From: Candidatus Hermodarchaeota archaeon
GTDB lineage: Archaea; Asgardarchaeota; Thorarchaeia; Thorarchaeales; Thorarchaeaceae
NCBI GenBank assembly: GCA_048885865.1
Contig: JBHLLF010000034.1
Span: 1-26,809 of the forward strand
Direction of reading: 5' to 3'
DNA length: 26,809 bases
Every line of letters starts with the position of its first letter. Position 1 is the stretch's first letter. The position numbers and the translations under genes were made by a program. Positions 1-18,300 of the stretch are shown here, one piece after another. The notes below the pieces were generated by a model. That model ran no database searches. It was given only the letters and a program-made list of their open reading frames with translations, and was not told the origin of the DNA.

Positions 1-3000
1 GATAAGGGTAATTCCATGAGTATCATCACCAGCTGCGCTTAGAACTGTGTAACCCTTCTTCAATGCTACATCTGAAACGAATGAGGTGTCGTTTAGATTC
101 AATGTCCCATCATAGCCCGAGTTGTCGAAGTCATATGTTGCCGTAACAACGATGCCAGATGCATTCTCGAAAATGTTAATTCTGTCATCTGTGGGGCTTG
201 TTATTTTTATTGTCAAACTATCCCAGATGATACTCTGCGTCTGACTATTCTGGTCAACCTGATTGAGTCCATGTGATCCACCATTGTAGGCTACAATGTT
301 GTAGATTACTTCTTGTACTGATGACCTGCTAATCGTGATTCGCCATACGCCTCCACCAATATGACTAGCAGGAATGGAATTGATTGTGACTGCTCCATTT
401 GTGACAGGACTTGAGTCGGATGCGTAGATGAGAGTCACATCCAGATTGACATTAGCATTGACATTGACTCTGGCATCGGCTGGCGAATATGATTGAACTA
501 CTACTCTATCAGCAATATATGTACCCTGAACGGAAGTGTCGAAAAGATCTTGAGCTCCACTACCCGATCCAGCTTCCACAGCTTTGATTGTTATCGTATC
601 CAGGCCTGCCGAATCGTCAGCAAATACGACCAAGCTGAAACTCCCTGAAACGAGCGTTGTATCACTCCAAGGTCCGACACTAGAACCATATCCTGAGCTC
701 AGCACCCAGACATCGGTTTCATTTGATAGAGGATTATCATCCCCTGAACCCAGATAAAGCAAAGTTCCGCTCACAGTGAAACTCCCATCGAGAGGCCCCC
801 GGTTCACTGTGCCAGAACCATCGGAAATTGCAAGCCCTGAAATGTCCAGGCGCGTTTCAACATCCCAGTTCACTTCATAGTAGTCTTCGTCTGAATCAAT
901 ACCATCTGTTACATATTGTCTGATATCTATGTCTGTCAAGTCAGAGTGGTTCCAATCTATCTTGATTATCCAAGTAACCACAAGTTGATTGCCAGTTCCA
1001 GAAGCTGATGACCATGAAGCAATTATTACATTGCCTGCTCCTTGTTGAATCGAGAATGAGTCGGTTGCAATAGTATATCTCAAAGTCCATTCTTCTTGAA
1101 TGCGGAGATTATCATATAGAGAGATCTCTACATATTGAAGTGCATCATAGCCATTTCCGTCACTCACATTCGATGTTATCACATAGAATCGATACCTTGC
1201 ATACAGATTGTCAGAATCATCTGCATTTTCGAGCATTGAAAGGCCATCTGTTGTGTTAACAGGAACTTCATTGGGAGCCTCAGACCAGGTGACTTTCTGG
1301 GTAGTAGTGATGAATGCGATTATTCCGAAATTGGTCTCAGAGCTGACAGAAGAAGCATTGTAATAGTAGATGGCATCAGAAGCCGTGTTTCTGAAGAGAG
1401 ACTTGTTGGAGTCAGTGAAAGCGTACCAGTGGGTCGCATTGCGAAAGATGACCACTTCGTAGGTTGTGCAAGTTGCAGAATCATAGTCATATGTAACCAT
1501 GAGTGTGAAGTTTGCCTGCTGCCCATTGAATAACGAAGCACCATCTGCTGTGATCTCAATCCTGAGTCTGTCCCAAATGCAGAATGTGGAATCAGGCATC
1601 GATATTGCGGTTATGCCGAAACCATCATCACCGTTTGCGGTGAGAACTTCATAGCCACGCTTGCCTACAGTAGCATAGGTAAATTGAGTATCGTTCAGCA
1701 CAAGAGTTCCATCGTAATTCGAACCATCATAATCATAGACTGCACTCACAATAATGCCAGTCGCATTATCGCCCACGTTCACTCGTTGGTCGGGAGGGTC
1801 AGTGATGGATATTGTAAGAGAGTCCCAAATGCAGTATGTATCGTCGTTTTGGCGAATTACTGTGATTCCGAATGAATCATCGCCTGAGGCAAAGCTCACC
1901 GTGTAGCCCTGCCTCTGCGCAAAATCGTAACTGAATAAGGAGTTGTTCAGAACAAGGGTGCCATCATAGACAGCGCCGTCAAAGTCATACCTGGCCGATA
2001 CAACAATTCCTGATGCATTAGAATTCACGTCAATTCTTTGATCCAGAGGATCAGTCATCTGAATGGTCAAGCTATCCCAAATGCAAGATGCTTCATCATT
2101 TACTTCGATCACTGTGATACCATAAGTGTCGTCCCCACTAGCTGAACTCACATTATACCAGTGTTGCTGCGCTGACGCATAGATGAAAACCGTGTCATTC
2201 AGAATCAATGTTCCATCATAGGCTGAACCGTCATACAAGTATGTCGCTGTGGGGACTATAGATGCAGTATCTCCAATGTTTAGTCTGTCATCAGCCACCG
2301 CGATTGTGATGGAAAGGGCATCCCAGATAATTGAAGGCTCAGCAATAGTCTGGATAGCACTTATGCCAAACTGGGTATCAGTGATTGAAGTCACTCCGAA
2401 TGCGTAACGGACTACGGTTGAGTACGTATGTAGCTGAGTCCAAACAAGATCCCCTGAATCCCATGCCATGGCAGTTCCATTAAGAAACACAGTTCCCATG
2501 GCTCCAGTAAACAGGACACCATCATACTGTCGAATTACGATGGCTGTTATTTCCTGTATCGAGCCTAAATCACACCTCGAATCAGAAACTGAGTAGCTCA
2601 GCACTCGCAGCTGGTCCCATATTACAGTAGCAACATCGTTAGTGCCAATCACAGTAATCCCATAGGTATCTCCGCTTGCGGAATCCACGGTGTAGGCCCT
2701 AGCACCGACAACTCCTTGCTGGAAAACCGTGTCGTTAAGATTCAGTGATCCATCAAAGGGCGTACCATCATAGTCGTAAATTGCCGACGCAGAAACAGAA
2801 GCGACATCTCCCACATTTATTCGATAATCAATAGCGGAGATGGAAACAGTTAGGGAGTCCCAAATACATGACACGACCATATTCTGTCGAATCGCAGTGA
2901 TGCCGAAAGAATCTCCAAAAGCAGAAGCAACTGTATAGCCCCGACGGCCAGCTGAAGCCTGCTGAAAGAAAGTATCATTTAATTGAAGAGTTCCATCATA

Positions 3001-6000
3001 TGTGGCGCCATCATAGTCATAGATGGCTGTTGGAACAATAGATGCAATAGTCCCAGTATCGATCCTACCATCACTCACTGTGATGGTAATCGTTAGCGAA
3101 TCCCAGATGATACCTTGGCTCTGTGAGTTCTGGTCTACTGCTGTTATGCCATGTTGATTGGTAGCGGCAGATACTGTGTCAAAAGTCACGAATTGAGCTG
3201 TGCTTCGCGTTTCAGTGAAGTCCCAAACTCCGTTGGAACCAGAATAAGTGGCACTAATGCCATTTATTGAAACAAATCCGTCGACAACAAAAGAATCATC
3301 AAAGTCGTAGATTAGAGTTACATTGCAGGAACATCCAGTATTGATGTCAATCCTTGAATCCCCAGCTGAATAAGAAATGACCACTAACTGATCCCAGATT
3401 ATCGTAGTGTTGGACGTAGTAACAACCCATTGCGTGAGGCCATAGACTAATTCAGAGGCTATAATAACATGATATCCTATTCTTTGGACAGATGCAGAGG
3501 TCTCCTGATAACGCCATCGAGTCGCCCCGGCATCCCACGCCAGAATCTTAGAGCCATTGAGTGCAGCAGAGAAACCCTTTGTAATGTCTATGTCAACAGC
3601 ATCAAACTCGTACCGCGCTTTCCACCAAGTTTCACCTATTGAATTCGTGTCGATTCGCCCATCGACAACGCCAGATTGATAGAACTCTATTCGATCCCAT
3701 ACTACATCCTGGAATTTTGAATTCAAGTTCAGGAGGCTGATGCCATATGTATCCTCATAGGCATTGGAACTGTTTACGTAATACCGCCATAAACCAACTT
3801 CGTACCTAGACGGTTGATATGCGAAGTGGTCAGTGCTCCAAATCATGGCATTGTTGTCCATGTAGAGAATGTCGTCCGCGCCTAGTGGATGATTATCAAA
3901 TTCAAGCACGGCGGTCACTATTATATCGGCCGGCGATCCATAGTCAATGCGGTCATCAGTAGTAGAGGTGGTCTGAATTAGAATTCGATCCCAGACCACA
4001 TCCGTCCAAAGGATATTTGGATTCAGAGAAGAAATGTCATGTGTCACTTCATTGGCTAAAGTCGAATTGACATAAAACCTCCAGAGGCCGACTGCTATCT
4101 TGGAAGTCTGATACTCAAAATGGTCAGTGTTCCAACTCATTAGAGTGTCATCTAGGTAGAGTGTATCGCTCGCTGTCAACATGTGGCTATCAAATTCGAG
4201 TTGTGCGGTGACAGAAATCGTAACTGTAGTGCCAAGATTCAGTCGATTGTCATTGGCTGTGGTTGTGGTGATTTGAATACGGTCCCATATTTGTGCCACA
4301 CTAATGCCTGCTAGATTAACGTATGAGATTCCGTACGTATCTTCAAGGGCATTTGATGCATTGACAAAGAATATCCATTCGCCAACTTGAGCAAACTGTG
4401 GCTTATACTGGAAATAGGACCCGACCCATGTCATCTGAGTCTCATTCATGTAAAGAATGTCATCCAGACTGAGCAAGTGGCTATCATACTCGAGTTGGGC
4501 GGTGACTCGAATATCAGCTTGAGTGTCATAGTCTATCCGCCCATCCTGCGTGGTAGTGGTGAGAACCAGAATCCTGTCCCAAATCTGATTTACTGATTTG
4601 CCATCGGTGTTCACCAACGAGATTCCATATGTCGCTTCCAGAGCAGTGGAGATGTTTACAAAATAGGTCCAAGACCCCACTTCATTTCTTATTGGTTGAT
4701 ACTGAAAGTAACTTGAAACCCAGGTCATTTCAACATCATCCATGTACAGGATGTCACCGGACTCAAGTGGATGATTATCATACTCAAGCAGAGCTGTTAC
4801 TCGAATGTCTGCCGCAGAACCGTAGTCAATTCTATTGTCCTGAGTTGAAGTCGTGATTATTCTGATGCGGTCCCAAATGACGCTGGCAGCTTGGCTGTTG
4901 AGATTCACTAGTGTTATGCCATATGTTGATTCCACTGCGCTAGTGGAATTCACAAAGTAGTTTAGAATACCAATGATCGAATATGCACCTGTTGACAATT
5001 CAAAGTGATCAGTACTCCAAGACATCAAAGTATCGTTGGTGAAGAGAGTATCTCCAGAACCTAGCAGATGACCATCATATTCAAGCTCAGCTGTTACGGT
5101 GATTGTGGTGGAGCTTCCATAATTGATACGGTCATCAGCCGCCGATGTCGTAATAATTCTGATTCTGTCCCATATGACGCTCGATTCTTTGCCATTCAGG
5201 TTCAATTCTGTAATACCATAGGCATTCATTGTGCTTGAGTTCAGATAGTATGTCCACGACCCAACATCTGAATTTGACACATCAAGCTCGAACCAAGAGT
5301 TGCCTGAATCCCATGACATGGCCTGATCCGCTAACATGACTGAATCGCCGGAGCCAAGGAAAGTACCATCATGCTCAAGCATGAGGGTGACACGGATTTG
5401 GACAATATCGTCAACATTGACTCTCTCATCATCAGCCACTGTCGTTTGCACTGAGATCCTATCCCAAATGACATCTTGGAAATTGCCATTCTGATTGACT
5501 GAAGATATTCCATAATCGGATTCCATTGCATTTGTGAGATTTACAAAGTATCTCCAAGACCCTACGCTTGCTTTTGCTCTTGGCAACTCGAACCTCAATT
5601 CTCCCCCGTCCCAAGTCATTTGGACACCGTCCATGAAGATTGTATCCAAGGAACCCAGCAAATGGCCATCATATTCCAACTGAGCCGTGACTCTCAATTC
5701 TGCAACGGAATTGATGTTGACTCTGCTGTCATCGACAGTAGTTGATGTAATCAGGATTCGGTCCCAGATTATAGATGCGTCGGATGTAGTCTGAGTCCAT
5801 GCCGTCAGCCCATAAGATGTTTCCAGAGCGGATAGAATAGCATATTGCTGGAGCTCGACTCCTGCCCTAGATTCAGAATATATCCAGTAGGTACCATTCC
5901 AGACTAGCAGTTTAGAACCTATGAGTTGCGCTGTCAGTCCCGATGTGATTGGTACGTCATCATAGTCATAGCGGCTTGCCCAATAGGTGGTTCCTGTGGA

Positions 6001-9000
6001 TCCAACATCAATCCGTCCATCATCCACCCCTGACAAATAGAACTCTATGCGATCTGAGATGAATGTGTCTGTAACTGATCCAGCATAGTATAAGTCCGCT
6101 CCTGAAGGGCCATCTCCTTCAGCCACCACCTTGAAAGTGTAAGTGTTTACCCGAACCGAGGATGACGATCCAATATCTGTTGCTGTTAGTACTCCAAGAC
6201 CATCCACATTTCCTGACCAAGAACCAGAGATGTCGTGCAAAACCCAGAAGTCCGTTTCATTTGACAAGGGGAATAGTGATGAAGCATAGAAAGTCAAAGC
6301 TCCCGTAGCCACTAGGTCAGCGGTATCTACGTTCCCACGATCATTATCTAGACTTGGTAGAGTTGAATAATCCAACCGCGTTTCTATATCCCAATTGGAT
6401 TCATACCAATCACTTGCCGCAGAAAATGTATTACTAACGAATTGCTTGGTATCAACGTCTACAATGTCAGGATGATTCCATGAGATCTTGATATACCATG
6501 TGATGTTCAGCCATATGCCAGACTGCTCATAGGTGCAAGGTCCCAAAGCAATGTACATTGACCCATTCGTGACAGAGAATGATGAATTACTTCTGACGAA
6601 TGTGACAGTCCAGTAGTTAGTTCCTCTGTCATCACTAAAGAGAAGGAGGCGTACGAGTCGGATATCTTGATAGCCGTTCTGATCCGAAGCATTTGAAGTG
6701 ATCTTATAGTAGCGTAGTCGTGCATACATGTTGTCAGTATCATCGGGATTGAGCAGGTTTGGTGGGGCTTCATTGACGGGAACTATTGGAACGTATGATG
6801 TCCAATTGACGAGCTCAGTGTTTGTGATGAACAGAGTGATGTCATACGAGGTTTCCGATATGATTGAGGACGCATTGTAAAAGTAGACCGAGTCACTATT
6901 CGTGTCATTGAATAAAGTCACATTCAGATATGTGAATGCCAACCAGTCAGTGTTGTTCCTCGCGCAGATTATCTCATATGTTGTGCATATTGTACCATCG
7001 GACTCGTAGACCACACTGAGGGTAAAGTTGACCTGCCTACCGTTTAGCACCATCTCGGCATCCGCTTGGATGTCAATCACCAGTCGATCCCAAATGACAT
7101 CCAGGATGTTCGAATCTAGGTTTACTACAGAAATGCCGAAATCAGTTTCGTAAGCATTTGTAGCGTTCACGAAGTATTTCCACAGGCCCACGGAAGATTG
7201 GGAAGTGCTATGAACGAAGGCGCTTTGAGGTGCGCTCCATACCATGGATACACCCTCCATGTAGAGAGTGTCTCCAGAACCAAGAAAGTGGTCTCCATTT
7301 CCAGCATATTCCAATTTCGCAGTGACTTGTAATTCAACTGTGTTGCCGACATTGACTCGAGAATCATCAGCTGTTATCGAAAGGATGAGTATCCTGTCCC
7401 AAATGACTTCAACGCTTAATGAATTCAAATCGACTTCGCTAATCCCATAAGTAGTTTCAAGGCTGGAATTAGCAAAGAAGGTCCATTTTCCAACCTCGGT
7501 GAACGCGACGTCGAGGATGAAATGACTATTCCCTCCATCCCACGTCATCGCCGAGTCGTTGACGAATACAGAGTCCCCACTACCAAGAAATGTGTGGTCG
7601 AATTCGAGCCACAATGTTACTTGGATTTGGGCAATCGAACCTACATCAAGGTGACTTATGTCAACATTTGTAGTTTGGACAGTGATCTTGTCCCAGATGA
7701 TGCTAGTATTAGCTGCTATCTGAATGAATCGAGTTAGACCGTAGAGCGACTCGGAAGCACTCGAAACTCCATATCCCATCGATTGGACTGTAGAGAATGA
7801 TTCAGAGTAGTCCCACATACTTGTGATACCATTCCAAGAAAGCGCCTTGCTACCATTCAGTGACGCGCTGAGTCCAGAGGTGATTTCAAACTGATCGTAG
7901 GCGTATCTTGCTCTCCACCATGTTGTACCAACCGCATCAACATTGATTCTGCCATCCTCAACCCCAGATGAATAGAACTCAATCTCATCCCATATGATCG
8001 ATACATTGGAGGCTGTTTGAACCCACGCTGTGAGACCATAAGTCGTTTCAGAAGCGGAAGCAATCCCATACCCCACAAGTTGGACAGAGCTTTTTGCTTC
8101 TGAAAAGTCCCAACGGAAGTCAGAAGAATTCCAAGCCAGTGCTTTTGAGCCATTCATTGATGCAGTTAAAATGGCTCCCGATATCTCAATTCTATCATAT
8201 TCATACCTTGCGTTCCAGTAAACCAACCCAATATGATCCACATCGACTCTGCCATCAACTGCCCCGCTCTGATAGAACTCTATCCGATCCCAAATCTGGC
8301 TAATACTATTGCCATCTAGGAATAGAGCAGAAATCCCATAGGTTGCTTCATTCGCATTAGAGGAGTTGACATAGAAATCCCAACGTCCAACCATAAAGAA
8401 TTGAGGCTGAAGTCGGAAGTACGAACCAACCCAAGTCATCACAGTATCATTCATGTATAAGGTGTCAGCAACACCTAGAGGATGGCCATCGAACTGCAAT
8501 TCCGCGGTGACTCGAATGTCCGCCAACGACCCGAAGTCAATTCTGCCTACTTGTGTCGTAGTTGTGACAATCACAATTTGATCCCATATTTGATCGACTT
8601 CCGCACCAGCGAGATTGACCACGGTTATCTGAAATGTAGCTTCCAAAGCTCCAGTGGAATTCACATAGAACTTCCACTCGCCCACTTGAGAGAACTGGGG
8701 TTGCAGTCGGAAATATGGGCCAACCCATGAGAGCCCTGTATTGTTCATGAAAAGAGTATCACCCAAACCGAGTGGATGGCCATCATACTCTAGCTCAGCG
8801 GTGACTCTCAAATCTGCAAATGTATTGATATCAATTCGTGAATCTTGAGAGGCAGTAGCCGTTATCAGAATGCGGTCCCAAATCACATTCGCTGAAAGTG
8901 GGTTGGATTGCACGAGCGTTATTCCAGAAGCTGTTTCTAGAGCACCTGATGCATTCACAAAGTACCTGAGAGATCCAACTATAGAATAGGAGCCAGTTTC

Positions 9001-12000
9001 GAGATAGAAATGATCTGTATCCCATGTCATCACAGTATCATTCATTCGTAATGTGTCTCCACTGCCCAAGAAGGTGCCATCATACTCAAGTTGAGCTGTG
9101 ACATTTACTGTAGTGCTTGTACCATAGTCGATTCTACCGTCAGAAGCCACTGTGGTGATAATAAGAATACGGTCCCAGATTTGGTCTATCTGTTTCCCGT
9201 CAATATTGAGCACAGTAATATCGTAAGTATTCTCCACGGCTCCAGTTGCATTGACATAGAATCTCCACAGCCCCACCTGCGAGAACTGAGGCTGCAGCCT
9301 GAAATAAGGACCAACCCAAGTCATGGCTGTGCTGTTCATGTAGAGTGTATCTCCCGCTCCAAGAAGATGGCCGTCGAATTCCAACTCTGCTGTCACTCTA
9401 ATGTCCGCAGCTGTCCCATAGTCAATTCTTCCATTCTGCGTGGTGGTTGTGATAATTCGTATGCGATCCCAAATGATTGTTGCATTGCTTGCGGTTTGCA
9501 CCCAGCCAGCTAGTCCATGTGTGGCATCGTAAGCCGAGGCGATTGTATATCCAGTGGCCTGGACTGAACTCATAGTTTCTTGAAATGTCCAGTGGGAGCC
9601 ATTCCACAAGAGTATCTTGGTGCCATTTAATGCCGCGCTCAGCCCGCCCGTTATTGAGAGAGAGTCGTACTGGTATCTGGCACTCCACCAAGTGACACCG
9701 CTCGAATCGACATCTATTCTGGAATCATCGACTCCTGACTGATAGAATTCGATTCTATCAGCGACAAATATGTCAGCAATGCTTGAGAAAAGAAGATCAG
9801 TGCCCCCAAATCCTGCACCCTTTTGGACAACCTTGACTGTGTAAGTGTCTTGGCCAACTTCATCATCTGCATAGCAGGTAACGTTGAAGAACCCTGAAAC
9901 CAGGGATGAATCAAGCCAAGGCCCTACACTGGTTCCATACTCAGACCCGGAAACCCACACGTCCACTTCTGATGATGGGGGAGTGATAGCTGAACCATGA
10001 TATGCAACAGTGCCAGTGGTGAAGAACTGAGTATCTAGGTCCCCTCTATTTATCGTGCCTATATTATCGTCAGTGGCAATGCCCACAATGTCCAGCCGAG
10101 TTTCTATGTCCCAATCGACTTCATACCAGTCCGTGTCATTCTCTGATTTACTGTCAATGACGACACACTCAACATCGGTTCCTGTGACGTCCGGATGAAT
10201 CCATTCAATCGAAACTTGAAAGGTAATATCAATATCATTCCCCGCCCTCAAGGCATTTGATGAAACAGTGTCAAGAGCGATGTAATTTGCCGGGTCCGAG
10301 AACTCAGCAAAGCTATCAGTGTCCTCATTATACTCGATTGTCCAGTAGAGTGTGAGTCTATCGTCCGAGTATAGAGAGAGCCGCATGCTTTGGATGTCAC
10401 TATACCCGTCCTGGTCAGAAATATTTGCAGCTATCAGATAATCCCTGGCTTTAGCATACATGTGGTTAGAATCATCGATGTTGCCTACCGAGGGCTGTTC
10501 ATCGTTCGATGGAATATTGTTCCAAGTGTGAAGAAGAGTTGCATCAATGGACCATTGTGACGACACCGCGTCGCCTACTTCCAGCCCGCCCCTGAACCTG
10601 ATGGTGAATGTTGCAGATGTTAGCCAAGTTTCCACGCTTATGTTGTTCCATGAGTCTGCCTGCAAGTCAGCGAATAGACTGACCCAGGCAAGCCCGTCCC
10701 AGACTTCGACTGCTATATCTTCTGAATCGGTATTCCCTGCATAGATGCAGAGAAACTCGTTATTATTGTCAAATTCAGCTGCGGTCCATTGGACCTCCAA
10801 GTCTAGTTCATAGTTGTAGGTCTGATCTGTCCAGGTATGAAGTGTAATGAGATCTATCTCCCAAAGCCCTTGCTCTGCATCACTTGTGTTATCTGCACCT
10901 CGGAGTCTAATCGTGTAGCTGACTGAATTAAGGCCTGTGGCAGTCAGATTGGTCCACCCGGTTGCGGTAATCGTTCCCAGGCTGAGCCAGCCGACTCCAT
11001 TCCAGTAGCTGACATTTAGACCCTCAGTCCCAGCAATCGATCCAACATTGATACAGACTTCCTCATTGACTTCATCATTGTCTGCTCCACTCCAAGCGTA
11101 CTCGAAATCAGCCTCGTAGTTGACAACCTTTGGGGAACTAACGCCAATCCGCAGATGATCAGCGTAGGCATAGTCTGCACCACCAGTCTTGTAGAACACA
11201 AGTCTAATACGAAGTGAATTGACCTGCTGTTGAGAAAGTGTACCTACAATTGTCAGGTTGTCGTATTGCTTGGCCGTATGCTGCGCGACTCTACCCAGCA
11301 AAGTGCCGGCGCCTCCGGTAGTATCATAATAGACATCAAATCCATCATCAGCCGCACCATCAAGGTTCCAGCAATACAACGATACGTTTACTGTGAGGGC
11401 TCCCGACAAAGACGTGTTAGGAAATCCCCACCAGCCTCCCTGAGATCCTGGGGCCTTTGTATAGATGTAGTTCACAGGCTCATCTTGTGAACTCAGGTAG
11501 GGAGAAGTACCTTCTATTGTGAATCCGGCATAAGTCGCATCGTATGCGTCTGTGTCAAGCCAAACAGACTGATACGGATCACCGATATCTACTTCCTGAA
11601 TAGTCATGAACTGGGTGTCAACAGCGGTTCCTTGTGCATTTGCAGGATTCGTCTCGACCCCCACATCTGGTGAAGAGTCAACATCACTCGCATAGCTATC
11701 ATAATCATCCTCAGCGTCCGTGGTAATGGGTGCTGTATTCTCTTCAGTAAGAGTATCATATGTAGCATCAGGTCCAGATTGTTGGTTGGCAAAATTCGAG
11801 TGACTTCCTAGGTATCCGGCGCCATCGACATCTGACAGATTATTAGCTGCAAATTGTTCAAGCGATGATGCAAGAGTGTATTCTGTCTGAGTCACTATCA
11901 AACTTGGCTCACACGTTGGAGAGTATGAAGGATTAGTACTAGTGCCGAGCAGCATAGCCACTATACATCCTGTGAGGACAATGACTAAGGGTCCTCTCCT

Positions 12001-12006
12001 CTTCAT
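1..12006 (-). CDS. Giant secreted/cell-surface repeat protein (>=4002 aa, 3' end outside the window), predicted tandem beta-sandwich domains
   Basis: ATG at 12006-12004, GGAGGT 4 nt upstream and an in-frame upstream TGA at 12036-12034. N-terminus MKRRGPLVIVLTGCIVAMLLGTSTNPSYS (basic + hydrophobic signal peptide). Hand translation of long stretches stays in one frame to base 1 (...IIWDSLTIKITSPTDDRINIFENASGIVVTATYDFDNSGYDGTLNLNDTSF...HGITLI). The ORF track lists no minus ORF in this frame, as expected if there is no stop in the window. WD boundary motif every 243-309 nt. Confidence 0.95.
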   Translation of the reverse strand, partial: MKRRGPLVIVLTGCIVAMLLGTSTNPSYSPTCEPSLIVTQTEYTLASSLEQFAANNLSDVDGAGYLGSHSNFANQQSGPDATYDTLTEENTAPITTDAEDDYDSYASDVDSSPDVGVETNPANAQGTAVDTQFMTIQEVDIGDPYQSVWLDTDAYDATYAGFTIEGTSPYLSSQDEPVNYIYTKAPGSQGGWWGFPNTSLSGALTVNVSLYCWNLDGAADDGFDVYYDTTGGAGTLLGRVAQHTAKQYDNLTIVGTLSQQQVNSLRIRLVFYKTGGADYAYADHLRIGVSSPKVVNYEADFEYAWSGADNDEVNEEVCINVGSIAGTEGLNVSYWNGVGWLSLGTITATGWTNLTATGLNSVSYTIRLRGADNTSDAEQGLWEIDLITLHTWTDQTYNYELDLEVQWTAAEFDNNNEFLCIYAGNTDSEDIAVEVWDGLAWVSLFADLQADSWNNISVETWLTSATFTIRFRGGLEVGDAVSSQWSIDATLLHTWNNIPSNDEQPSVGNIDDSNHMYAKARDYLIAANISDQDGYSDIQSMRLSLYSDDRLTLYWTIEYNEDTDSFAEFSDPANYIALDTVSSNALRAGNDIDITFQVSIEWIHPDVTGTDVECVVIDSKSENDTDWYEVDWDIETRLDIVGIATDDNIGTINRGDLDTQFFTTGTVAYHGSAITPPSSEVDVWVSGSEYGTSVGPWLDSSLVSGFFNVTCYADDEVGQDTYTVKVVQKGAGFGGTDLLFSSIADIFVADRIEFYQSGVDDSRIDVDSSGVTWWSARYQYDSLSITGGLSAALNGTKILLWNGSHWTFQETMSSVQATGYTIASAYDATHGLAGWVQTASNATIIWDRIRIITTTTQNGRIDYGTAADIRVTAELEFDGHLLGAGDTLYMNSTAMTWVGPYFRLQPQFSQVGLWRFYVNATGAVENTYDITVLNIDGKQIDQIWDRILIITTVASDGRIDYGTSTTVNVTAQLEYDGTFLGSGDTLRMNDTVMTWDTDHFYLETGSYSIVGSLRYFVNASGALETASGITLVQSNPLSANVIWDRILITATASQDSRIDINTFADLRVTAELEYDGHPLGLGDTLFMNNTGLSWVGPYFRLQPQFSQVGEWKFYVNSTGALEATFQITVVNLAGAEVDQIWDQIVIVTTTTQVGRIDFGSLADIRVTAELQFDGHPLGVADTLYMNDTVMTWVGSYFRLQPQFFMVGRWDFYVNSSNANEATYGISALFLDGNSISQIWDRIEFYQSGAVDGRVDVDHIGLVYWNARYEYDRIEISGAILTASMNGSKALAWNSSDFRWDFSEAKSSVQLVGYGIASASETTYGLTAWVQTASNVSIIWDEIEFYSSGVEDGRINVDAVGTTWWRARYAYDQFEITSGLSASLNGSKALSWNGITSMWDYSESFSTVQSMGYGVSSASESLYGLTRFIQIAANTSIIWDKITVQTTNVDISHLDVGSIAQIQVTLWLEFDHTFLGSGDSVFVNDSAMTWDGGNSHFILDVAFTEVGKWTFFANSSLETTYGISEVDLNSLSVEVIWDRILILSITADDSRVNVGNTVELQVTAKLEYAGNGDHFLGSGDTLYMEGVSMVWSAPQSAFVHSTSQSSVGLWKYFVNATNAYETDFGISVVNLDSNILDVIWDRLVIDIQADAEMVLNGRQVNFTLSVVYESDGTICTTYEIICARNNTDWLAFTYLNVTLFNDTNSDSVYFYNASSIISETSYDITLFITNTELVNWTSYVPIVPVNEAPPNLLNPDDTDNMYARLRYYKITSNASDQNGYQDIRLVRLLLFSDDRGTNYWTVTFVRSNSSFSVTNGSMYIALGPCTYEQSGIWLNITWYIKISWNHPDIVDVDTKQFVSNTFSAASDWYESNWDIETRLDYSTLPSLDNDRGNVDTADLVATGALTFYASSLFPLSNETDFWVLHDISGSWSGNVDGLGVLTATDIGSSSSVRVNTYTFKVVAEGDGPSGADLYYAGSVTDTFISDRIEFYLSGVDDGRIDVGSTGTTYWASRYDYDDVPITSGLTAQLIGSKLLVWNGTYWIYSESRAGVELQQYAILSALETSYGLTAWTQTTSDASIIWDRILITSTTVDDSRVNINSVAELRVTAQLEYDGHLLGSLDTIFMDGVQMTWDGGELRFELPRAKASVGSWRYFVNLTNAMESDYGISSVNQNGNFQDVIWDRISVQTTVADDERVNVDDIVQIRVTLMLEHDGTFLGSGDSVMLADQAMSWDSGNSWFELDVSNSDVGSWTYYLNSSTMNAYGITELNLNGKESSVIWDRIRIITTSAADDRINYGSSTTITVTAELEYDGHLLGSGDTLFTNDTLMSWSTDHFELSTGAYSIIGILNYFVNSTSAVESTYGITLVNLNSQAASVIWDRIRIITTSTQDNRIDYGSAADIRVTALLEYDNHPLESGDILYMDDVEMTWVSSYFQYQPIRNEVGSWTYFVNISTALEATYGISLVNTDGKSVNQIWDRILVLTTTTQDGRIDYDTQADIRVTAQLEYDSHLLSLDDILYMNETQMTWVGSYFQYKPQFAQVGEWIFFVNASNALEDTYGISYVNLAGISVAQIWDRIQITTTTANDNRLNLGTTVTISVTAQLEFDSHMLTASDTLYLDDTLMSWNTDHFEYQTSKIAVGLWRFYVNSTLANEVTHDISSLNPNILWTDVVWDRILIQTTSTTDDRIDYGSPADIIVTAVLEFDNHPLGADDILYMDNNAMIWSTDHFAYQPSRYEVGLWRYYVNSSNAYEDTYGISLLNLNSKFQDVVWDRIEFYQSGVVDGRIDTNSIGETWWKARYEFDAVDIDITKGFSAALNGSKILAWDAGATRWRYQETSASVQRIGYHVIIASELVYGLTQWVVTTSNTTIIWDQLVVISYSAGDSRIDINTGCSCNVTLIYDFDDSFVVDGFVSINGISATYSGSNGVWDFTETRSTAQFVTFDTVSAATNQHGITAVDQNSQSQGIIWDSLTITITVSDGRIDTGTIASIVPTAIYDYDGATYDGTLQLNDTFFQQASAGRRGYTVASAFGDSFGITAIRQNMVVSCIWDSLTVSISAIDYRINVGDVASVSASAIYDYDGTPFDGSLNLNDTVFQQGVVGARAYTVDSASGDTYGITVIGTNDVATVIWDQLRVLSYSVSDSRCDLGSIQEITAIVIRQYDGVLFTGAMGTVFLNGTAMAWDSGDLVWTQLHTYSTVVRYAFGVTSITDTQFGISAIQTIAEPSIIWDALSITIAVADDRLNIGDTASIVPTATYLYDGSAYDGTLILNDTVFIYASAQQHWYNVSSASGDDTYGITVIEVNDEASCIWDSLTIQMTDPLDQRIDVNSNASGIVVSARYDFDGAVYDGTLVLNNSLFSYDFAQRQGYTVSFASGDDSFGITVIRQNDDTYCIWDSLTISITDPPDQRVNVGDNATGIIVSAVYDYDGSNYDGTLVLNDTQFTYATVGKRGYEVLTANGDDGFGITAISMPDSTFCIWDRLRIEITADGASLFNGQQANFTLMVTYDYDSATCTTYEVVIFRNATHWYAFTDSNKSLFRNTASDAIYYYNASSVSSETNFGIIAFITTTQKVTWSEAPNEVPVNTTDGLSMLENADDSDNLYARYRFYVITSNVSDGNGYDALQYVEISLYDNLRIQEEWTLRYTIATDSFSIQQGAGNVIIASWSSASGTGNQLVVTWIIKIDWNHSDLTDIDIRQYVTDGIDSDEDYYEVNWDVETRLDISGLAISDGSGTVNRGPLDGSFTVSGTLLYLGSGDDNPLSNETDVWVLSSGYGSSVGPWSDTTLVSGSFSLVVFADDSAGLDTITIKAVEAGSGSGAQDLFDTSVQGTYIADRVVVQSYSPADARVNVNANVNLDVTLIYASDSSPVTNGAVTINSIPASHIGGGVWRITISRSSVQEVIYNIVAYNGGSHGLNQVDQNSQTQSIIWDSLTIKITSPTDDRINIFENASGIVVTATYDFDNSGYDGTLNLNDTSFVSDVALKKGYTVLSAAGDDTHGITLI
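517..1269 (-). repeat. Node module copy 3 of the giant protein
   Basis: VPVN...DDSDNLYARYRFYVITSNVSDGNGYDAL...WNHSD...DYYEVNWDVETRLD...NRGPLD...PLSNETDVWV...GPW. Confidence 0.85.
6058..6783 (-). repeat. Node module copy 2 of the giant protein
   Basis: VPVNE...DDTDNMYARLRYYKITSNASDQNGYQDI...WNHPD...DWYESNWDIETRLD...DRGNVD...PLSNETDFWV. Confidence 0.85.
9763..10518 (-). repeat. Node module copy 1 (~250 aa) of the giant protein
   Basis: DDSNHMYAKARDYLIAANISDQDGYSDI...WIHPD...DWYEVDWDIETRLD...NRGDLD...SEVDVWV...GPW; homologous to copies 2 and 3. Confidence 0.85.
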
Positions 12007-12010
12007 ACTT

Positions 12011-12016
12011 ACCTCC
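12011..12016 (-). promoter_or_regulatory. Shine-Dalgarno (GGAGGT) of the giant gene
   Basis: Plus strand acctcc, 4 nt upstream of ATG 12006. Confidence 0.8.
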
Positions 12017-12193
12017 TCTATCAGCCGCTTCAATCATGCTGTCGGGACCATCGAAGCCTTGATTGAAACTCACTTCTATCGCGAATTGCAGGGCTCACTG
12101 GACTGGGTTGGATCGACCTGCATCAATTATGGGATTTCCTACCCACAGTACGGTCTTCATGTATGCATATTTGTCTTACTTCATTGGTTTCCA

Positions 12194-12258: not shown

Positions 12259-13611
12259 CTATTGATCCTCGTCATCTTCTCCGAATCGCTTCGGCCTGCC
12301 AAGACGTCTGGAGTCGTCTACTCTAAGCCTATCAGGATCAGGTGGTGCACCATATCGTTCCTCTTTAGGCTCTCTAATCTCTTCAACGACCTCCCTATCG
12401 AGATCTTCTTCGCGAATCTCTTTGCCTTCTTTTCGCTCCTCTTTCACCCGCTCAGCGACGCGCTCAGCTCTCTCGAACATGACATAGTAGAGCGTGGTGA
12501 AGATTGCTACTAGCGGGAAGGCCAGCAGCTTCGCGATATCTCGGAAGAGAAACGTTTCGTAGACAGCAGGACCTGACCAGTCAAACCATCCTGCGAGGAT
12601 TGTGGCTCCAGAGTTAGAAACTGCGATAATGCTGTCAACGAAGAAGAACCCGCTGGCAAGGAAGAATGTGAATAGAGGACCGAAATCGCGTGTCCTCATG
12701 CGGGTCTCTTCCACACCCTCTGTGACAGTACGTCCTATCCCGCTCATAGCATAGAGCAAAAAGAACAGTGACATCGCGATATCAACGACGCTCATCGTGG
12801 GAGCTCCAGTTCTTCGCATTACGTTGACAAAGAAGTAGCCCGAATATATTCCAATGAAGATAGTCATCAGTGCGACATTCAAAGCTGCACCCTTACCGGC
12901 ATACCTAAAGAATGCCAAGAGGGATACCAAAGCAAAGAGTCCAAGGAGTCCTGCTGCCACCCAAATCAGAATTCCGTGAATCTGTAGATTGGATACAGCT
13001 TGTGGAAAGATTGCGGTTATTGCATCACCCAGACCAAACATGTTCTCCGGTATCAAGAAGAGAACAGCTAGAACTATAGCTCCTATAATTCCAAGTCCGA
13101 TGATCAACAGAAGGAAACTTCCAATGCCAACTCCAATTCCGCCCTTCTTTGGCTCTGCGATAGTGGCGAGGCGCAAACTGGTTCTTGATGACAAGTAGGC
13201 TTGGAAAGCGATCCAACCAACCCAACAGAACATGGCGAAGAACAGTAGGGCAGTCTCTCCAAAGAAAATTGACAGGAAAACTGATATCGCAAATGACACA
13301 GCTAGCCAGGCAACGCCCTTTAGTTCTGTCACCCGCCCTCGCCCTCTTCGTGTGATCCATAGCCGATCTGCACGCACCCCAATAAGTAGAGTCCCAAAGG
13401 CGAAATAGATGGTGCCTGTGGCACCAATGTATAGGAAGAAGTTCGCCAATATGAGCTCGATGCCTGTACCGGGATAGAGCGTCATGAGCCATGTCACGAG
13501 GTAGCCCAGGAAGGTTGTGAACACAAAGATGATCAAATAAGCAACGTATCTTCGAGTCTTAAAGAAGACCTTCAGACCTTCAACAATTCCAGATAGAATC
13601 GGGATTCCCAT
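12259..13611 (-). CDS. Polytopic membrane protein of unknown function (~11-12 TM, charged C-terminal tail)
   Basis: 450-aa ORF of hydrophobic segments alternating with basic loops (RRGRGR, EPKKGG), ending in a ~70-aa E/R/K/D-rich tail. GGAGG at 13622-13618. Confidence 0.9.
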   Translation of the reverse strand: MGIPILSGIVEGLKVFFKTRRYVAYLIIFVFTTFLGYLVTWLMTLYPGTGIELILANFFLYIGATGTIYFAFGTLLIGVRADRLWITRRGRGRVTELKGVAWLAVSFAISVFLSIFFGETALLFFAMFCWVGWIAFQAYLSSRTSLRLATIAEPKKGGIGVGIGSFLLLIIGLGIIGAIVLAVLFLIPENMFGLGDAITAIFPQAVSNLQIHGILIWVAAGLLGLFALVSLLAFFRYAGKGAALNVALMTIFIGIYSGYFFVNVMRRTGAPTMSVVDIAMSLFFLLYAMSGIGRTVTEGVEETRMRTRDFGPLFTFFLASGFFFVDSIIAVSNSGATILAGWFDWSGPAVYETFLFRDIAKLLAFPLVAIFTTLYYVMFERAERVAERVKEERKEGKEIREEDLDREVVEEIREPKEERYGAPPDPDRLRVDDSRRLGRPKRFGEDDEDQ

Positions 13612-14166: not shown

Positions 14167-15570
14167 ATGGAAACACGACAGATTGCCGCCGTAATTCTCA
14201 TCGTCGTGGTTATTGCCGGCGTGGGCATAGGAATCTATTACTTCATGCCACAAGCCCCAGAACCGCCATACGGTGAGTTGGTAATCGGACAGGTAGTCAC
14301 ACCTGGCGCTCCAGCTGGAGTTGCGAGCGACCACATAATAAAAGTGGGAGTCCTCGGACCTTTGACCGAGATCCAAGGTATTGGCCATTGGAGAGGAGCC
14401 TATATGGCTTGTGACGAGCTGAACACTGCAGGCGGAGTAACAATAGACGGGGAAGTGTACTATTTTGGCATCATTGCCGAAGACACGTTTGAGGCTGAAA
14501 CCAGTCTTGACCCATCCAAAGGAGTGACTGCAGCGCAGAGAATCCTTACTACCGATGGCGCCCAATTCGTTCTTGGAGGATTCAGAACTGAGGCGGTAGA
14601 TGCCTATCTGCCAACAATAATGGACGCTGAGAAGCTATTCTTGAGCTGCGGACCTGCAACAGACATATTCACTACCTATGTGAATGATTCGTATGATACG
14701 TACAAGTATTACTTCAAGGTCACCCCAATAAACTCCACAGCTCTAGGAGGCGAGATAATTGGATTCCTAGCCGCGCTCAAGCCAATCATGCAGGGTGCAC
14801 TAGGAAAGAACATATCCCAAGTCGCAATCATTCGCGAGGATCTCGCATGGACAATACCACTTAGTAATGCCATTAACTACTACTTGCCCTTTTTCGGGTA
14901 CAATAAGACAATAGAGATAGCGTACCCGATTGCACAATCAGCATCATCATCATCATTCGCCGGATATTGGCAGCAGATTGAAGCCACTGGAGCACAGATC
15001 ACAATTCCAATAATTTCTGCACAAGGTGGGATTACAATGGTAACCCAGTATAAGGCGCTTGAACCGGGGTGCCTTATCGCAGGCATTGATGTCCAGGCAC
15101 AGCTGGCTAATTACTGGAATGAAACCGGTGGTGCCTGTGAGCACGAAGTCATCATCCAGACAATGCATCGCACCAATAAGACAACGAGGTCAATAGATAT
15201 GTGGGATGGTTTTATTGACCACTACGGGGACGAACCACTCTATACAGCCGTTGGCGCCTATGATGCGATGTATCTGTTGCACAAAGGAATCAATGATGCA
15301 CAGTCTCTGGTCTCAAACGATATTATACCATATCTTGAGGCCATAACAGTAGACAATCCGTTCGAAGGAGTAGGGGCTAACTTTGCTTACACTTCCACCC
15401 ACGACGTCTATGAAGGCTACATCGGTAACACACTCTATAGCGTGGGACTGTTCTGCCAATGGCAGGCAGGAGGAGTTAAGGAAGTCGTCACAACCGGAGG
15501 CGCTGTGTATCCGAATTGGCTCGCGACAGCAGATATCACATTTCCATCTTGGGGCATCAATGACGAATAG
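14167..15570 (+). CDS. ABC transporter substrate-binding protein, LivJ/K-like (type 1 periplasmic binding fold), N-terminal TM anchor
   Basis: N-terminal TM helix + Pro-rich linker, no lipobox Cys. IKVGVLGPLT, FVLGGFRTE, VAIIREDLAW and GAYDAMYLL motifs. Upstream of livHMGF-like genes. Confidence 0.9.
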   Translation: METRQIAAVILIVVVIAGVGIGIYYFMPQAPEPPYGELVIGQVVTPGAPAGVASDHIIKVGVLGPLTEIQGIGHWRGAYMACDELNTAGGVTIDGEVYYFGIIAEDTFEAETSLDPSKGVTAAQRILTTDGAQFVLGGFRTEAVDAYLPTIMDAEKLFLSCGPATDIFTTYVNDSYDTYKYYFKVTPINSTALGGEIIGFLAALKPIMQGALGKNISQVAIIREDLAWTIPLSNAINYYLPFFGYNKTIEIAYPIAQSASSSSFAGYWQQIEATGAQITIPIISAQGGITMVTQYKALEPGCLIAGIDVQAQLANYWNETGGACEHEVIIQTMHRTNKTTRSIDMWDGFIDHYGDEPLYTAVGAYDAMYLLHKGINDAQSLVSNDIIPYLEAITVDNPFEGVGANFAYTSTHDVYEGYIGNTLYSVGLFCQWQAGGVKEVVTTGGAVYPNWLATADITFPSWGINDE

Positions 15571-15607
15571 GTGACCTAATGGATTCAAGATGGATACATG
15601 GAATATT

Positions 15608-15651
15608 GAAGGAGTTTGAGTATTATTTGCTCAAATTCCCTTCTTCTTTTT
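15608..15651 (+). terminator. Intra-operonic hairpin + U tract after the SBP gene
   Basis: GAAGGAGUUUGAGUA-UUAUU-UGCUCAAAUUCC(C)UUC: ~15-bp stem with two G-U pairs and one bulge, followed by UUCUUUUU. Confidence 0.75.
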
Positions 15652-15718
15652 CCGACCAATTTTTCAATACGTTTGTAAATGAAATTCCCGGACAATCAAA
15701 CCTCAGAGGCGGAATATC

Positions 15719-16570
15719 TTGATAGAGGAGATACTAATCTTTGGCACGGTGCAAGGTGCTCTTCTAGCACTATTTGCACTGGGTTTTTCTCTAGTCTACG
15801 GTGTAGGTGGAGTGCTAAACCTGTCCCATGGAGCTTTCTTTGTAATCGCGGTCTACGTGTTCTACTGGACAATTCCTTTGTACGGAATAGCGATAAGTGC
15901 GGTTTTCGCGCTGATTGCAGTAGTTGCTGTCGGGGCAGCGACATATCTAGCACTCATCAAGCCCTTGCAGGAAAGTCACATTGGTGTTGTCTTGGTTACA
16001 TTCGCGCTGGCATTCTTCCTTGAGCAATTTGTGAAGGTCGTTGGGGACTCTTTATTTCACTATATACCGCCTTACATCTCGGGCCCAGTCGAATTCTTGG
16101 GTGTCAGATTCCAAGCCCAATTGGTGATTCTGGTGGTGGGATCTCTAATCCTTGTGACAGGGGTAGCTCTGTTCATTAACAAATCAAGAATTGGCAAGTC
16201 AATACGTGCCGTATCGCAGGATGCAGAGGCGGCAAAGCTAATGGGCATAAACACTGACTTGGTGCTAATGACAAGCGTTATGATATCGGCTTTGCTCGTG
16301 GGTTTTGCGGCTATTCTTTACGGCCCGGGCACCTCGATCGCACCTCACTTGGGATGGAGCTATCTGCTATCTGCTTTCGCAGTAACAATCTTTGGTGGAA
16401 TGGGTAGCATACCAGGAAGCATTTTGGGCGCCTTCATAATGGGATATGCAGGAACATTTACTAATTTCTACATTAGTGCTGCCCTCTCAGAGGTAATTCC
16501 CATTGTAGTGATTCTAGTAATGTTGTTGGTCAGACCTCAAGGGCTGTTAGGAAAGAAGGAGCTGCAATAG
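15719..16570 (+). CDS. livH: Branched-chain amino acid-type ABC permease (LivH-like)
   Basis: ALGFSLVYGVGGVLNLSHG, SRIGKSIRAVSQDAEAAKLMGIN, FGGMGSIPG and VRPQGLLG motifs. TTG start. Confidence 0.92.
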   Translation: MIEEILIFGTVQGALLALFALGFSLVYGVGGVLNLSHGAFFVIAVYVFYWTIPLYGIAISAVFALIAVVAVGAATYLALIKPLQESHIGVVLVTFALAFFLEQFVKVVGDSLFHYIPPYISGPVEFLGVRFQAQLVILVVGSLILVTGVALFINKSRIGKSIRAVSQDAEAAKLMGINTDLVLMTSVMISALLVGFAAILYGPGTSIAPHLGWSYLLSAFAVTIFGGMGSIPGSILGAFIMGYAGTFTNFYISAALSEVIPIVVILVMLLVRPQGLLGKKELQ

Positions 16571-16574
16571 ATCA

Positions 16575-17558: not shown

Positions 17559-17559
17559 G

Positions 17560-18300
17560 ATGGGTCTAATACTAGAAGTCAAGAATCTGACTAAGAAGTT
17601 CGGTGGACTTACAGCAGTCAATGATGTAAATTTCGAGATAGAAAGAGGAGAGATGCTCGGCCTGATTGGCCCTAATGGAGCAGGGAAGACGACACTCTTC
17701 CATCTGCTGACTGGATTTGAAAAGCCTAATTCTGGTTCGATTAGGTTCAACGGAATAAGCATCAGAGGAAAAAAACCCTATCAGATTGTCAATCTAGGGA
17801 TTGCTAGGACTTTCCAGTTGGTAAAATCATTTCGCTTTCTCAGCCTTCTTGACAACATAGCAGTGGCATGCCTCTCGGCTCGCGGAAGGCGGTCATTTGA
17901 ATCTTCAGATATCGATGAAACTGCCAGCTCAATACTCTCTTCCGTCGGATTGGTGGACAAGGCCAGATTGCCCCCGGTAATCCTACCTCATGGTGATTTG
18001 AGAAGACTTGAGATTGGTAAGGCATTAGGAACGAACCCAGAATTACTACTTCTCGATGAACCGTTCAGTGGGCTGACATATGAAGAGAAAGAGGGGGTCA
18101 ACAAGCTGATAAAAAGACTGCATGATGAGGGTGTGACTATTTTTGTCACAGGACATGTGCTACGCGAGTTGATGAACTTAGTTCCCAGGGTTATTGCCAT
18201 GCATCGGGGTAGACTAATTGCCGAAGGATCTCCGCGGGAGGTGGCAAACAACAGAATAGTACTAGAGGCGTACCTAGGAGGAAGTGAAGCATTTGCTTGA
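17560..18300 (+). CDS. livG: ABC ATP-binding protein (LivG-like); start revised to ATG 17560
   Basis: LEVKNLTKKFGGLTAV, Walker A GPNGAGKT, GIARTFQ, Walker B LLLLDEP, and VLEAYLG at the C-terminus. ATG lies 1 nt after the livM stop. Confidence 0.92.
   Translation: MGLILEVKNLTKKFGGLTAVNDVNFEIERGEMLGLIGPNGAGKTTLFHLLTGFEKPNSGSIRFNGISIRGKKPYQIVNLGIARTFQLVKSFRFLSLLDNIAVACLSARGRRSFESSDIDETASSILSSVGLVDKARLPPVILPHGDLRRLEIGKALGTNPELLLLDEPFSGLTYEEKEGVNKLIKRLHDEGVTIFVTGHVLRELMNLVPRVIAMHRGRLIAEGSPREVANNRIVLEAYLGGSEAFA

Follow-up and report, generated by a model that had tools for sequence, protein, structure and literature searches.

The window, by which we mean the whole 26,809-nt stretch of DNA analyzed here, is the beginning of a contig (C34) from a metagenome bin of 117 contigs that is 87% complete with 5% contamination. 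On its minus strand, positions 1 to 12033 form one frame without stops that is open at the contig edge (ORF list), and the database copy of the encoded protein (P0003) starts at an ATG at 12006, begins MKRRGPL, and is 4,002 aa long. The gene is broken by the contig end. A full-length ortholog, L001, is 5,170 aa long, 94% identical, and encoded on a 64-kb contig; the complete protein is ~5,170 residues with ~50 immunoglobulin-like domains, of which the window encodes the first 4,002 residues (Table 1). The bin holds one further piece of the family, at the end of contig C90, which belongs to a different paralog. The 724-aa open frame there was considered as the missing C terminus and rejected, in that its tail is 84% identical to that of P0018, a protein of the sister lineage; the tail of close orthologs (AFELExPTEPAGxRLK...) is unlike it, and a tail of this type was not found by tblastn in the source bin.

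Table 1. Features of the giant surface protein gene in the window
Feature	Positions	Strand	Basis or remark
Partial giant surface protein gene	1..12006	minus	N-terminal 4002 aa encoded; ~1170 aa C-terminal past contig end
Signal peptide or hydrophobic leader, N-terminal (MKRRGPLVIVLTGCIVAMLLG...)	11926..12006	minus	Sequence reading; conserved in orthologs
Head module H1: acidic disordered lead-in, then jelly-roll core (~11131-11574)	11134..11913	minus	AlphaFold
Two H2 beta-sandwich modules, ~100 aa each, head to first node	10519..11133	minus	Internal repeat in sequence
Node N1 (domains Na + Nb)	9760..10497	minus	Three-node alignment; orthologous family-wide, clade support 99
Segment 1: ten units B A A A A B B A A E	6799..9759	minus	E cap 6799-7089
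Node N2	6052..6783	minus	Three-node alignment; AlphaFold model
N2 Na: V-set-like Ig domain, ~135 aa	6379-6783	minus	AlphaFold model
N2 Nb: Ig-like domain, ~108 aa	6052-6378	minus	AlphaFold model
Segment 2: seventeen units B A7 B D C C V C C C E	1285..6054	minus	E cap 1285-1572
Node N3	511..1254	minus	Alignment, node tree
Segment 3 start: unit D + truncated unit C	1..510	minus	Continues in ortholog L001

At the N-terminal end, the AlphaFold model of H1 (mb538561ea6fb) has a mean pLDDT of 65, with a core at ~75 to 88 whose predicted fold is like that of a carbohydrate-binding module or an Eph ligand-binding domain. Aligned with VIA-align, this model (pLDDT 65) matches CBM6/35/36 and the Eph ligand-binding domain at Z scores of 10 to 11 (rmsd ~3 Å, 120 to 133 aligned residues), and H1 has no Pfam match. 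A shared jelly-roll fold alone is no proof of sugar binding, and we treat H1 as a candidate ligand-binding tip. The H1-H2-H2-node grammar is common to the whole family, as judged by HMM, and H2 is all-beta in the model. At the C-terminal end, L001 closes with a transmembrane (TM) helix followed by ~110 aa of cytoplasmic tail; the window ends before the C terminus, and the type I topology and membrane anchor of its protein are predicted from the orthologs. The window protein has 74 NxS/T sequons, versus 44 ± 6 in shuffles, and its composition includes 9.3% Asp and 1.0% Lys. Based on these features, it is probably a membrane-anchored surface fiber with predicted glycosylation.

Cutting the chain at [IV]WD boundaries delimits 29 units in the window and reproduces exactly the order given by the sequence-only reading; with six node domains, the count comes to 35 domains. 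The units are 35 to 68% identical inside a class and 13 to 40% identical across classes. The proposed subtypes are borne out by a maximum-likelihood unit tree in which every class is one clade (support values of 96/90 for A, 100/99 for B, 90/83 for C, 100/99 for D, and 100/100 for E), with 5 label changes needed where shuffles average 14.8. The order is likewise non-random, in line with the sequence-only reading: same-class neighbor pairs number 14 versus 7.1 ± 1.9 when shuffled (p = 0.0007), and E closes both segments (p = 0.003). In L001, segment 3 reads D C C C D C V E' D' C C A' D' and is followed by the TM helix. The units had been called WD units, a name that suits the conserved I-W-D boundary at the unit end and misleads as to family; WD40 domains are propellers of ~40-aa repeats, whereas these are Ig-like beta-sandwiches of 81 to 103 aa with no Pfam WD40 match. 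We could place them in no named stalk family either (Big_1/2/3, FN3, PKD, Cadherin, SHIRT, and others), the whole protein having no Pfam match at an E value of ≤1 and ten single modules having no usable Pfam match at an E value of ≤10. The C-type runs of a paralog, P0014, do match DUF7738 (PF24880; E value of 3e-45), and by custom HMM the C units are homologous to those runs, despite the fact that neither the window protein nor its C unit matches DUF7738 at the gathering score.

The node positions, when re-derived as 9760-10497 (N1), 6055-6774 (N2), and 511-1254 (N3), agree with those first proposed to within ~20 nt. N1, N2, and N3 are homologous modules of ~245 residues each, mutually 38 to 43% identical across ~250 aa, with the conserved motifs NxDDxDNxYA, SDxNGY, IKIxWxH, WDxETRLD, and SNETDxW. 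Each is part of what may be called a super-node, that is, an E cap, a Pro-containing linker of 15 to 20 residues, Na, and Nb, and the window protein has three of these. Across the family, an E unit precedes the node in 99/99 junctions, the first node being preceded by H2, and the unit after the node is B in 77 cases, D in 52, and C in 8. The E unit and node carry acidic DxDxNG-type motifs and near-invariant glycosylation sequons, at N45 and N56 of E in 38/38 junctions and at N277 of Nb in 37/38. A search of the ESM Atlas with the node returned unnamed clusters only, below 0.9.

How would such a junction look? The sequence-only reading had pictured a jointed rod and had proposed structure prediction across the E-node-B junctions. 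The AlphaFold model of E-N2-B (m766238ef76e1; pLDDT 93.3, pTM 0.72) consists of four beta-sandwiches without a low-confidence linker; it is confident and continuous, and the joint finds no counterpart in it in the form of a hinge. In this model, Na resembles antibody variable domains (Z ~9, rmsd 3.1 Å, 115 aligned residues), Nb together with the B unit resembles intimin (Z 9.0), and Foldseek matches also include RTX-adhesin tandem repeats and macroglobulin-domain arrays. As modeled, all of the modules are Ig-like beta-sandwiches. The whole model superposes loosely (rmsd 11 to 13 Å) on the extended chains of ICAM-5 D1-D4, titin I65-I70, and fibronectin, and based on these superpositions and the pTM, the chain would run straight through the node.

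The family is found in Thorarchaeota, in 33/87 genomes of the class and all within one family, and its sole match outside Thorarchaeota is one Lokiarchaeota protein (P0053; E value of 1.5e-25) with one node. Our literature search found no paper on this protein family. The group I orthologs, that is, those of the gene's own lineage, come from at least 10 metagenome genomes and are 63 to 94% identical; unit order and number are unchanged among them, with no random adjacency, and the inter-node distances of 995 aa (N1-N2) and 1,601 aa (N2-N3) are exact in every one. Each unit is nearer its positional ortholog (~73%) than any paralog. At the DNA level, Tandem Repeats Finder reports no array in the gene, a DNA repeat search found no high-identity repeats, and the best inter-unit identity is ~65 to 70% over 224 nt. 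Inter-unit DNA identity of at most ~70% leaves fast slippage nothing to act on, and the array of this gene is therefore frozen and not, as had been proposed, tunable in length. In this lineage, unit identity is conserved position by position, and node spacing is constant.

Across the family as a whole, the picture is more varied, with segments of 4 to 21 units and proteins of 2 to 5 nodes. The node tree shows N1 as an ancient clade throughout the family, together with recent duplications of whole node-plus-run-plus-E blocks (P0002, with 5 nodes, and P0052/L013). The hierarchy, the homology of the segments, and the segmental duplication that the sequence-only reading had put forward stand, the last on the strength of this tree; its independent expansion within segments, like the jointing and the tuning, is not supported. 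The units form one pool, in that identity within segments equals identity between segments. Moreover, the segments of the sister lineage change length jointly, which argues against independent expansion: the N1-N2/N2-N3 distances there are 782/689, 1070/977, 1165/1074, 1358/1265, or 1645/1555 aa, and in 17/18 proteins with both segments complete, segment 1 is one unit longer than segment 2. On the tree of this lineage, whose kin are non-independent and some of whose forks are poorly supported, length changes number at least 8 for segment 1 and at least 7 for segment 2, compared with a single change in their difference. Close sister-lineage orthologs differ by one 288-aa gap in each segment, exactly, and the same paired change separates P0030 (12/7) from its sister P0036 (9/4); elsewhere, change can be uncoordinated (P0038, 16/7, versus P0033, 16/4). 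The joint changes of the sister lineage suggest that node spacing is under selection.

Several origins for these lengths were considered and set aside. Gene conversion is an unlikely source of the matched lengths, with inter-segment units ~54% identical within a protein versus ~78% overall identity between orthologs. A three-unit super-repeat behind the 288-aa steps is not general: in plots of identity against offset, period 3 occurs in segment 2 of P0021 and P0023 only, period 4 occurs in P0037 and P0046, and the others have none, and P0055 violates a multiple-of-3 rule. As for the window protein, its segment 2 is not a simple colinear copy of segment 1, since the closest A-unit pairs do not follow one another in the same sequence.

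In total, the observations outlined above make it likely, in our judgment, that the gene product is the outer portion of a single-pass (type I) surface fiber of a Thorarchaeota archaeon, with a fixed-order Ig-like stalk and nodes. In this architecture, the signal peptide is followed by an acidic disordered stretch, a predicted lectin-like jelly-roll tip, two H2 sandwiches, and a stalk of ~46 back-to-back Ig-like domains, 35 of them in the window, and in the full-length ortholog a TM helix and cytoplasmic tail close the protein. The stalk is built on two levels, as unit runs (81 to 103 aa, five classes) broken by three super-nodes; its history is one of duplicated blocks of node, run, and cap and of gains and losses of whole units, with the result now frozen in this lineage. 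We posit that this stalk would be long (~200 nm, taking ~4 nm for each domain), glycosylated, and fairly stiff and could hold a binding tip far off the membrane and that the nodes may serve as fixed structural or docking stations, not hinges. A tunable version of such a stalk, of the periscope type that the sequence-only reading had in mind, would have intragenic recombination alter the unit number and so tune the projection of the tip. The family-wide range in units and nodes would fit this idea, as would the homogenized runs of some paralogous lineages, which are 70 to 78% identical at all offsets, but the window gene, with no tandem array, a top unit DNA identity of ~70%, and orthologs that, even at 63% module identity, match it exactly in unit number and length, makes it improbable. 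Could the regularity instead be a product of assembly, with repeats collapsed or made chimeric in a short-read metagenome bin? The gene does break its contig, the bin has the modest statistics given above, and the other family piece in it, at the C90 end, comes from a different paralog. However, the order and exact lengths recur in at least 10 separately assembled genomes, including the complete ortholog on its 64-kb contig, and the 12-kb frame is open, with units too diverged in DNA to collapse; we give such an artifact hardly any credence.

Is the stalk then no more than a passive one? The constant node distances of the window's lineage, like the matched distances of the sister lineage, point to something more specific. 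In a more far-reaching reading, nodes would pair with nodes, inter-node distance would be the selected trait, and the protein would be a junction or lattice element, not a free stalk; it could be folded at N2, antiparallel across two cells, or staggered among neighbors in a canopy. The paired length changes of the sister lineage speak for such docking, as do the exactly constant spacing of the window's own lineage and the V-set fold predicted for Na, a fold that often dimerizes. However, the segments of the window protein are unequal (10 and 17 units), so symmetric pairing cannot be family-wide, uncoordinated changes occur in other lineages, and the sister-lineage counts carry the dependence among kin and the weak forks noted above. 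Node docking thus seems to us rather unlikely as matters stand, and the fixed-order surface fiber is the reading that we carry forward.

According to one account (bioRxiv 10.1101/2025.07.22.663070), the Asgard surface is irregular and protein-rich, with components unidentified. The present family is a concrete surface candidate, a predicted fiber of ~200 nm with a conserved domain-by-domain plan and predicted glycan-bearing nodes at fixed heights. To our knowledge, Thorarchaeota have never been imaged. The fixed order runs counter to the usual view of repeat adhesins as length-variable, and the coordinated length change in the sister lineage is a hint that node spacing matters, e.g., for cell-cell contact in syntrophic consortia. 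If docking were true, the archaea closest to eukaryotes would possess giant ruler-like proteins of junctions or lattices, in place of simple adhesin stalks. Of practical use, the alignments of units and nodes provide definitions for at least seven domain families absent from Pfam.

The design is a familiar adhesin-like plan built from unnamed domains. Titin, a eukaryotic, intracellular ruler or spring, offers an analogy only, with no homology implied: its I-band/A-band super-repeats (PDB 3b43, 2rjm) likewise form an Ig chain with a position-specific higher-order pattern kept between orthologs, and the E-N2-B model aligns with titin I65-I70 at a Z score of 8.7 (340 aligned residues, rmsd 11.3 Å). 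Periscope proteins (SasG, Rib, and Sgo_0707) share with the window protein a rod-like repetitive stalk behind an N-terminal domain for binding (in the window protein, the candidate tip H1) and a family whose members differ in length (PMC8201768). They are known for highly identical DNA repeats and for repeat-number variation between close strains (PMC8201768), both of which are absent in the window gene and its close relatives. Bacterial fibrillar adhesins (intimin/invasin Big domains and RTX extender repeats; PDB 6xi1/6xi3, 1f02, 6tpl) have the succession also predicted here, of a distal binding-type domain (for the window protein, the candidate H1), a linker-less beta-sandwich stalk, and an anchor, with fold matches at Z scores of 8 to 9 and Foldseek E values of ~1e-8 to 1e-9. 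Like them, the window protein is acidic with DxD-type motifs, and its 29 units and six node domains form a tandem stalk that is all-beta in the model. An anchor of TM helix and tail is seen in the 94%-identical L001, the window being cut before the C terminus. Unlike them, it is archaeal, would have a type I membrane anchor and tail in place of an outer-membrane or cell-wall anchor, and has five unit classes in fixed order with two-domain nodes, not one repeated domain. Within the Asgard archaea, the available part of the same preprint (bioRxiv 10.1101/2025.07.22.663070) describes LOKIASV2_19760 of Nerearchaeum marumarumayae, a protein of 5,416 aa with 54 fibronectin-like domains of several subtypes. 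Compared by that description, both proteins combine a signal peptide with dozens of FN3/Ig-like domains that fall into several subtypes, and both have a membrane span (seen for our protein in the ortholog) and a predicted reach of ~200 to 250 nm; LOKIASV2_19760 is Lokiarchaeial, and node modules, a cap unit, and conserved spacing are not among the features described for it there.

The minus strand of the window reads from 12033 to base 1 as one uninterrupted frame, free of stops and open at the end of contig C34, which is one of 117 contigs in a 3.58-Mb bin and whose first 26.8 kb form the window. The database copy of this giant surface protein (P0003; ATG at 12006, 4002 aa) begins with a signal-peptide-like leader, MKRRGPLVIVLTGCIVAMLLG, and Pfam gave no match to the protein, whether entire or module by module. 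Cutting at conserved [IV]-W-D boundaries yields 29 units (the label "WD units" is not to be taken as WD40), in the very string of classes A to E and V that the sequence-only reading had listed. These subtypes are real: in a maximum-likelihood tree there is one clade per class (support of 96/90 for A, 100/99 for B, 90/83 for C, 100/99 for D, and 100/100 for E), the class labels need 5 changes versus a shuffle mean of 14.8, and units of one class share 35-68% identity, those of different classes 13-40%. The order is also nonrandom, with 14 same-class neighbours versus 7.1 ± 1.9 in shuffles (twofold; p = 0.0007) and with the cap, E, at the end of both segment 1 (N1 to N2) and segment 2 (N2 to N3) (p = 0.003). 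Overall, the observed arrangement is confirmed. The nodes N1, N2, and N3 span 245 residues each and share 38-43% pairwise identity. Around N2, the flanking A units are mirrored, a1 a2 E N2 B a2 a1 (A_1448, A_1546, E N2 B, A_2091, A_2191; window 7090-7692 and 5470-6054), the closest paralog pairs being A_1546/A_2091 (99/96) and A_1448/A_2191 (96/85); such an order is not expected from simple tandem or block duplication.

Nodes of the giant gene, neighbouring genes in the window, and the related piece on contig C90
Feature	Position	Strand	Remarks
Node N1	9760-10497	-	alignment of three nodes
Node N2	6055-6774	-	alignment of three nodes
Node N3	511-1254	-	alignment of three nodes
Multi-pass membrane protein, 450 aa, charged C terminus	12259-13611	-	immediately upstream of giant gene, same strand
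Branched-chain amino-acid ABC transporter operon (binding protein, two permeases, two ATPases), then HEAT-repeat protein and AMP-binding acyl-CoA synthetase-type enzyme	14167-22047	+	
Two likely surface proteins	22292-24589 and 25156-26796	-	one with Big_13 Ig-like match; other with SdrD_B, CarboxypepD_reg, and SpaA prealbumin-like matches
C90 end piece (outside window)	last ~2.2 kb of C90	-	724-aa open frame: 2.5 stalk units, TM helix, ~450-aa very acidic cytoplasmic tail

Given that E-N2-B was modelled by AlphaFold as four beta-sandwiches with a mean pLDDT of 93.3 (pTM 0.72, nowhere below 50), what is a node? The E unit (model residues 1-98) resembles C2-type Ig, PKD, FN3, and CARDB domains (Z 8.3-9.3); Na, the first node domain (103-237), fits the variable domains of antibodies and T-cell receptors (Z about 9, rmsd 3.1 Å, 115 residues aligned); and for Nb plus the B unit (239-442), the match is to intimin domains (Z 9.0). 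Foldseek also returned RTX-adhesin extender repeats and macroglobulin-domain arrays, and E-N2-B as a whole superposes loosely (rmsd 11-13 Å) on the extended four-domain chains of ICAM-5 D1-D4, titin I65-I70, and fibronectin. The node is therefore a pair of larger Ig-like domains within the rod. The sole real linker, 15-20 residues with Pro between E and Na, comes out ordered in the model (pLDDT about 86-88). There is no sign of a hinge that would make the rod "jointed," as had been proposed, though it may contain a kink. Confidence is lower for the head model (pLDDT 65, from 12 sequences); its core, spanning residues about 154-301 of the protein, appears as a jelly roll like those of CBM6/35/36 and Eph ephrin-binding domains (Z 10-11, rmsd about 3 Å, 120-133 aligned).

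The protein carries 74 N-x-S/T sequons versus 44 ± 6 in shuffles, and its composition is 9.3% Asp and 1.0% Lys. An alignment of 38 junctions (E, node, and next unit), taken from the window and from related loci, shows the sequons at E N45 and N56 in all 38, that at Nb N277 in 37, and that at E N21 in 31. The acidic motifs NxDDxDNxYA and SDxNGY, conserved in the same E-plus-node block, could be calcium ligands. The I-K-I-x-W-x-H motif of Na (window about 6480-6500) holds the only invariant lysine of this alignment.

One grammar holds throughout the family. With the node as the query, 52-60 proteins of 2200-7250 aa were found; those with names are all titled "hypothetical protein" and belong to metagenome genomes of Thorarchaeota, "Sifarchaeia," or "Promethearchaeota," apart from one weak match in Lokiarchaeota. 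Among 29 loci in species-representative genomes, 23 are titled Thorarchaeota or Promethearchaeota; the others are titled "uncultured archaeon" or "archaeon," and two come from an Ignavibacteria-labelled bin. Of the 87 genomes of the class, 33 have the head, and these 33 all fall in one family. Module HMMs give H1 H2 H2 (the head), then repeated node, run, and E, then a last node with a terminal cassette behind it, and finally a TM helix and a tail. A node comes next after E in 99/101 cases, and the rule that E precedes internal nodes extends to the whole family (99/99); the unit after a node is B in 77 cases, D in 52, and C in 8. Two open frames of 10,138 and 6,620 aa with several H2-like modules (G004:C81 and G030:C55) would be relatives of still greater size, or fusions, from other genera of the family.

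How did such an array arise, and does its length vary? Segmental duplication is supported by the node tree and by recent block duplications, namely of nodes 2 and 3 of a five-node relative (P0002), of both nodes of P0052, and at locus L013, which has two near-identical segments, D4-5 C C V C C C E. In the tree, N2 and N3 cluster mostly by position within lineages, and N1 is one clade across the whole family; therefore, the separation of N1 from the other nodes predates the divergence of the lineages. The units of segments 1 and 2 form one pool, as identity within a segment equals that between segments. "Tunable length," on the other hand, finds no support in this gene's own lineage, where the array is frozen: the unit string is identical in at least 10 genomes, and every ortholog with it has segments 1 and 2 of exactly 995 and 1601 aa. 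Modules match their positional orthologs at 77-97% identity in the closest orthologs and 63-86% (mean about 73%) in more distant ones, the exception being the N3 and D_3842 pair of P0004, versus 35-68% at most for paralogous units within one protein. Tandem Repeats Finder found no array in the units, and no two units exceed about 70% identity in their DNA; thus, the features that define length-variable "Periscope" stalks (PMC8201768), namely highly identical DNA repeats and repeat numbers that vary between close strains, are not present. One complete ortholog (5170 aa; L001, a 64-kb contig of isolate TM1S.110) has a segment 3 of D C C C D C V, a degenerate E, a D-like unit that might mark a former node position, C C, and two weak units, and ends in a TM helix and a roughly 110-aa tail; it thereby indicates what the truncated copy in the window lacks. 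In P0004/P0007 (Sifarchaeia MAG, locus tags ACFFCX_), N3 and the next unit group with nodes of another lineage, the remainder being colinear, and that unit is B in place of D (24% identity to the window's D_3842); the pattern resembles a module swap between paralogs.

Nor is expansion independent in the sister lineage, since its segments change while their difference stays nearly constant. This lineage takes in P0008 to P0028, P0054, and P0055; its N1-N2/N2-N3 distances are 782/689, 1070/977, 1165/1074, 1358/1265, or 1645/1555 aa (P0008 is the sole departure), and between close orthologs each segment shows just one gap, of 288 aa. On a concatenated node tree, segment 1 requires at least 8 changes, segment 2 at least 7, and their difference only 1; a flanking-unit tree gives the same picture. 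Could conversion between segments have matched the lengths? This is unlikely, because inter-segment identity is about 54% versus about 78% overall between orthologs. A three-unit sequence period is present only in some segments. The coupled changes suggest that node spacing is under selection; in the window's own protein, the segments are unequal.

Apart from the giant gene, the genome contains a single family piece, the end of contig C90, the tail of which is 84% identical to that of P0018 (Thorarchaeota SMTZ-45, sister lineage). Therefore, the bin carries what looks like a second, truncated giant paralog of the sister lineage, the body of which is missing from the bin; genomes DZ3S.43, QM2B.38, and MP5_2600 likewise have a second paralog. 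The 450-aa membrane protein, without a Pfam match, adjoins the giant gene in close relatives (97% in L001, 95% in L002) and also lies beside a short two-node family member (L021, 68%). The ABC transporter operon is ordinary.

The design of the giant protein is that of fibrillar adhesins, and it is similar to that of an adhesin-like giant of a cultured Lokiarchaeial relative, described in a preprint as having 5416 aa and 54 fibronectin-like domains of several subtypes (bioRxiv 10.1101/2025.07.22.663070). From these designs as described, the window's family differs in its set of unnamed domain families, in its fixed, position-specific order, in a rod punctuated by a three-domain E-Na-Nb block with predicted glycans, and in a node spacing that is conserved or covarying.
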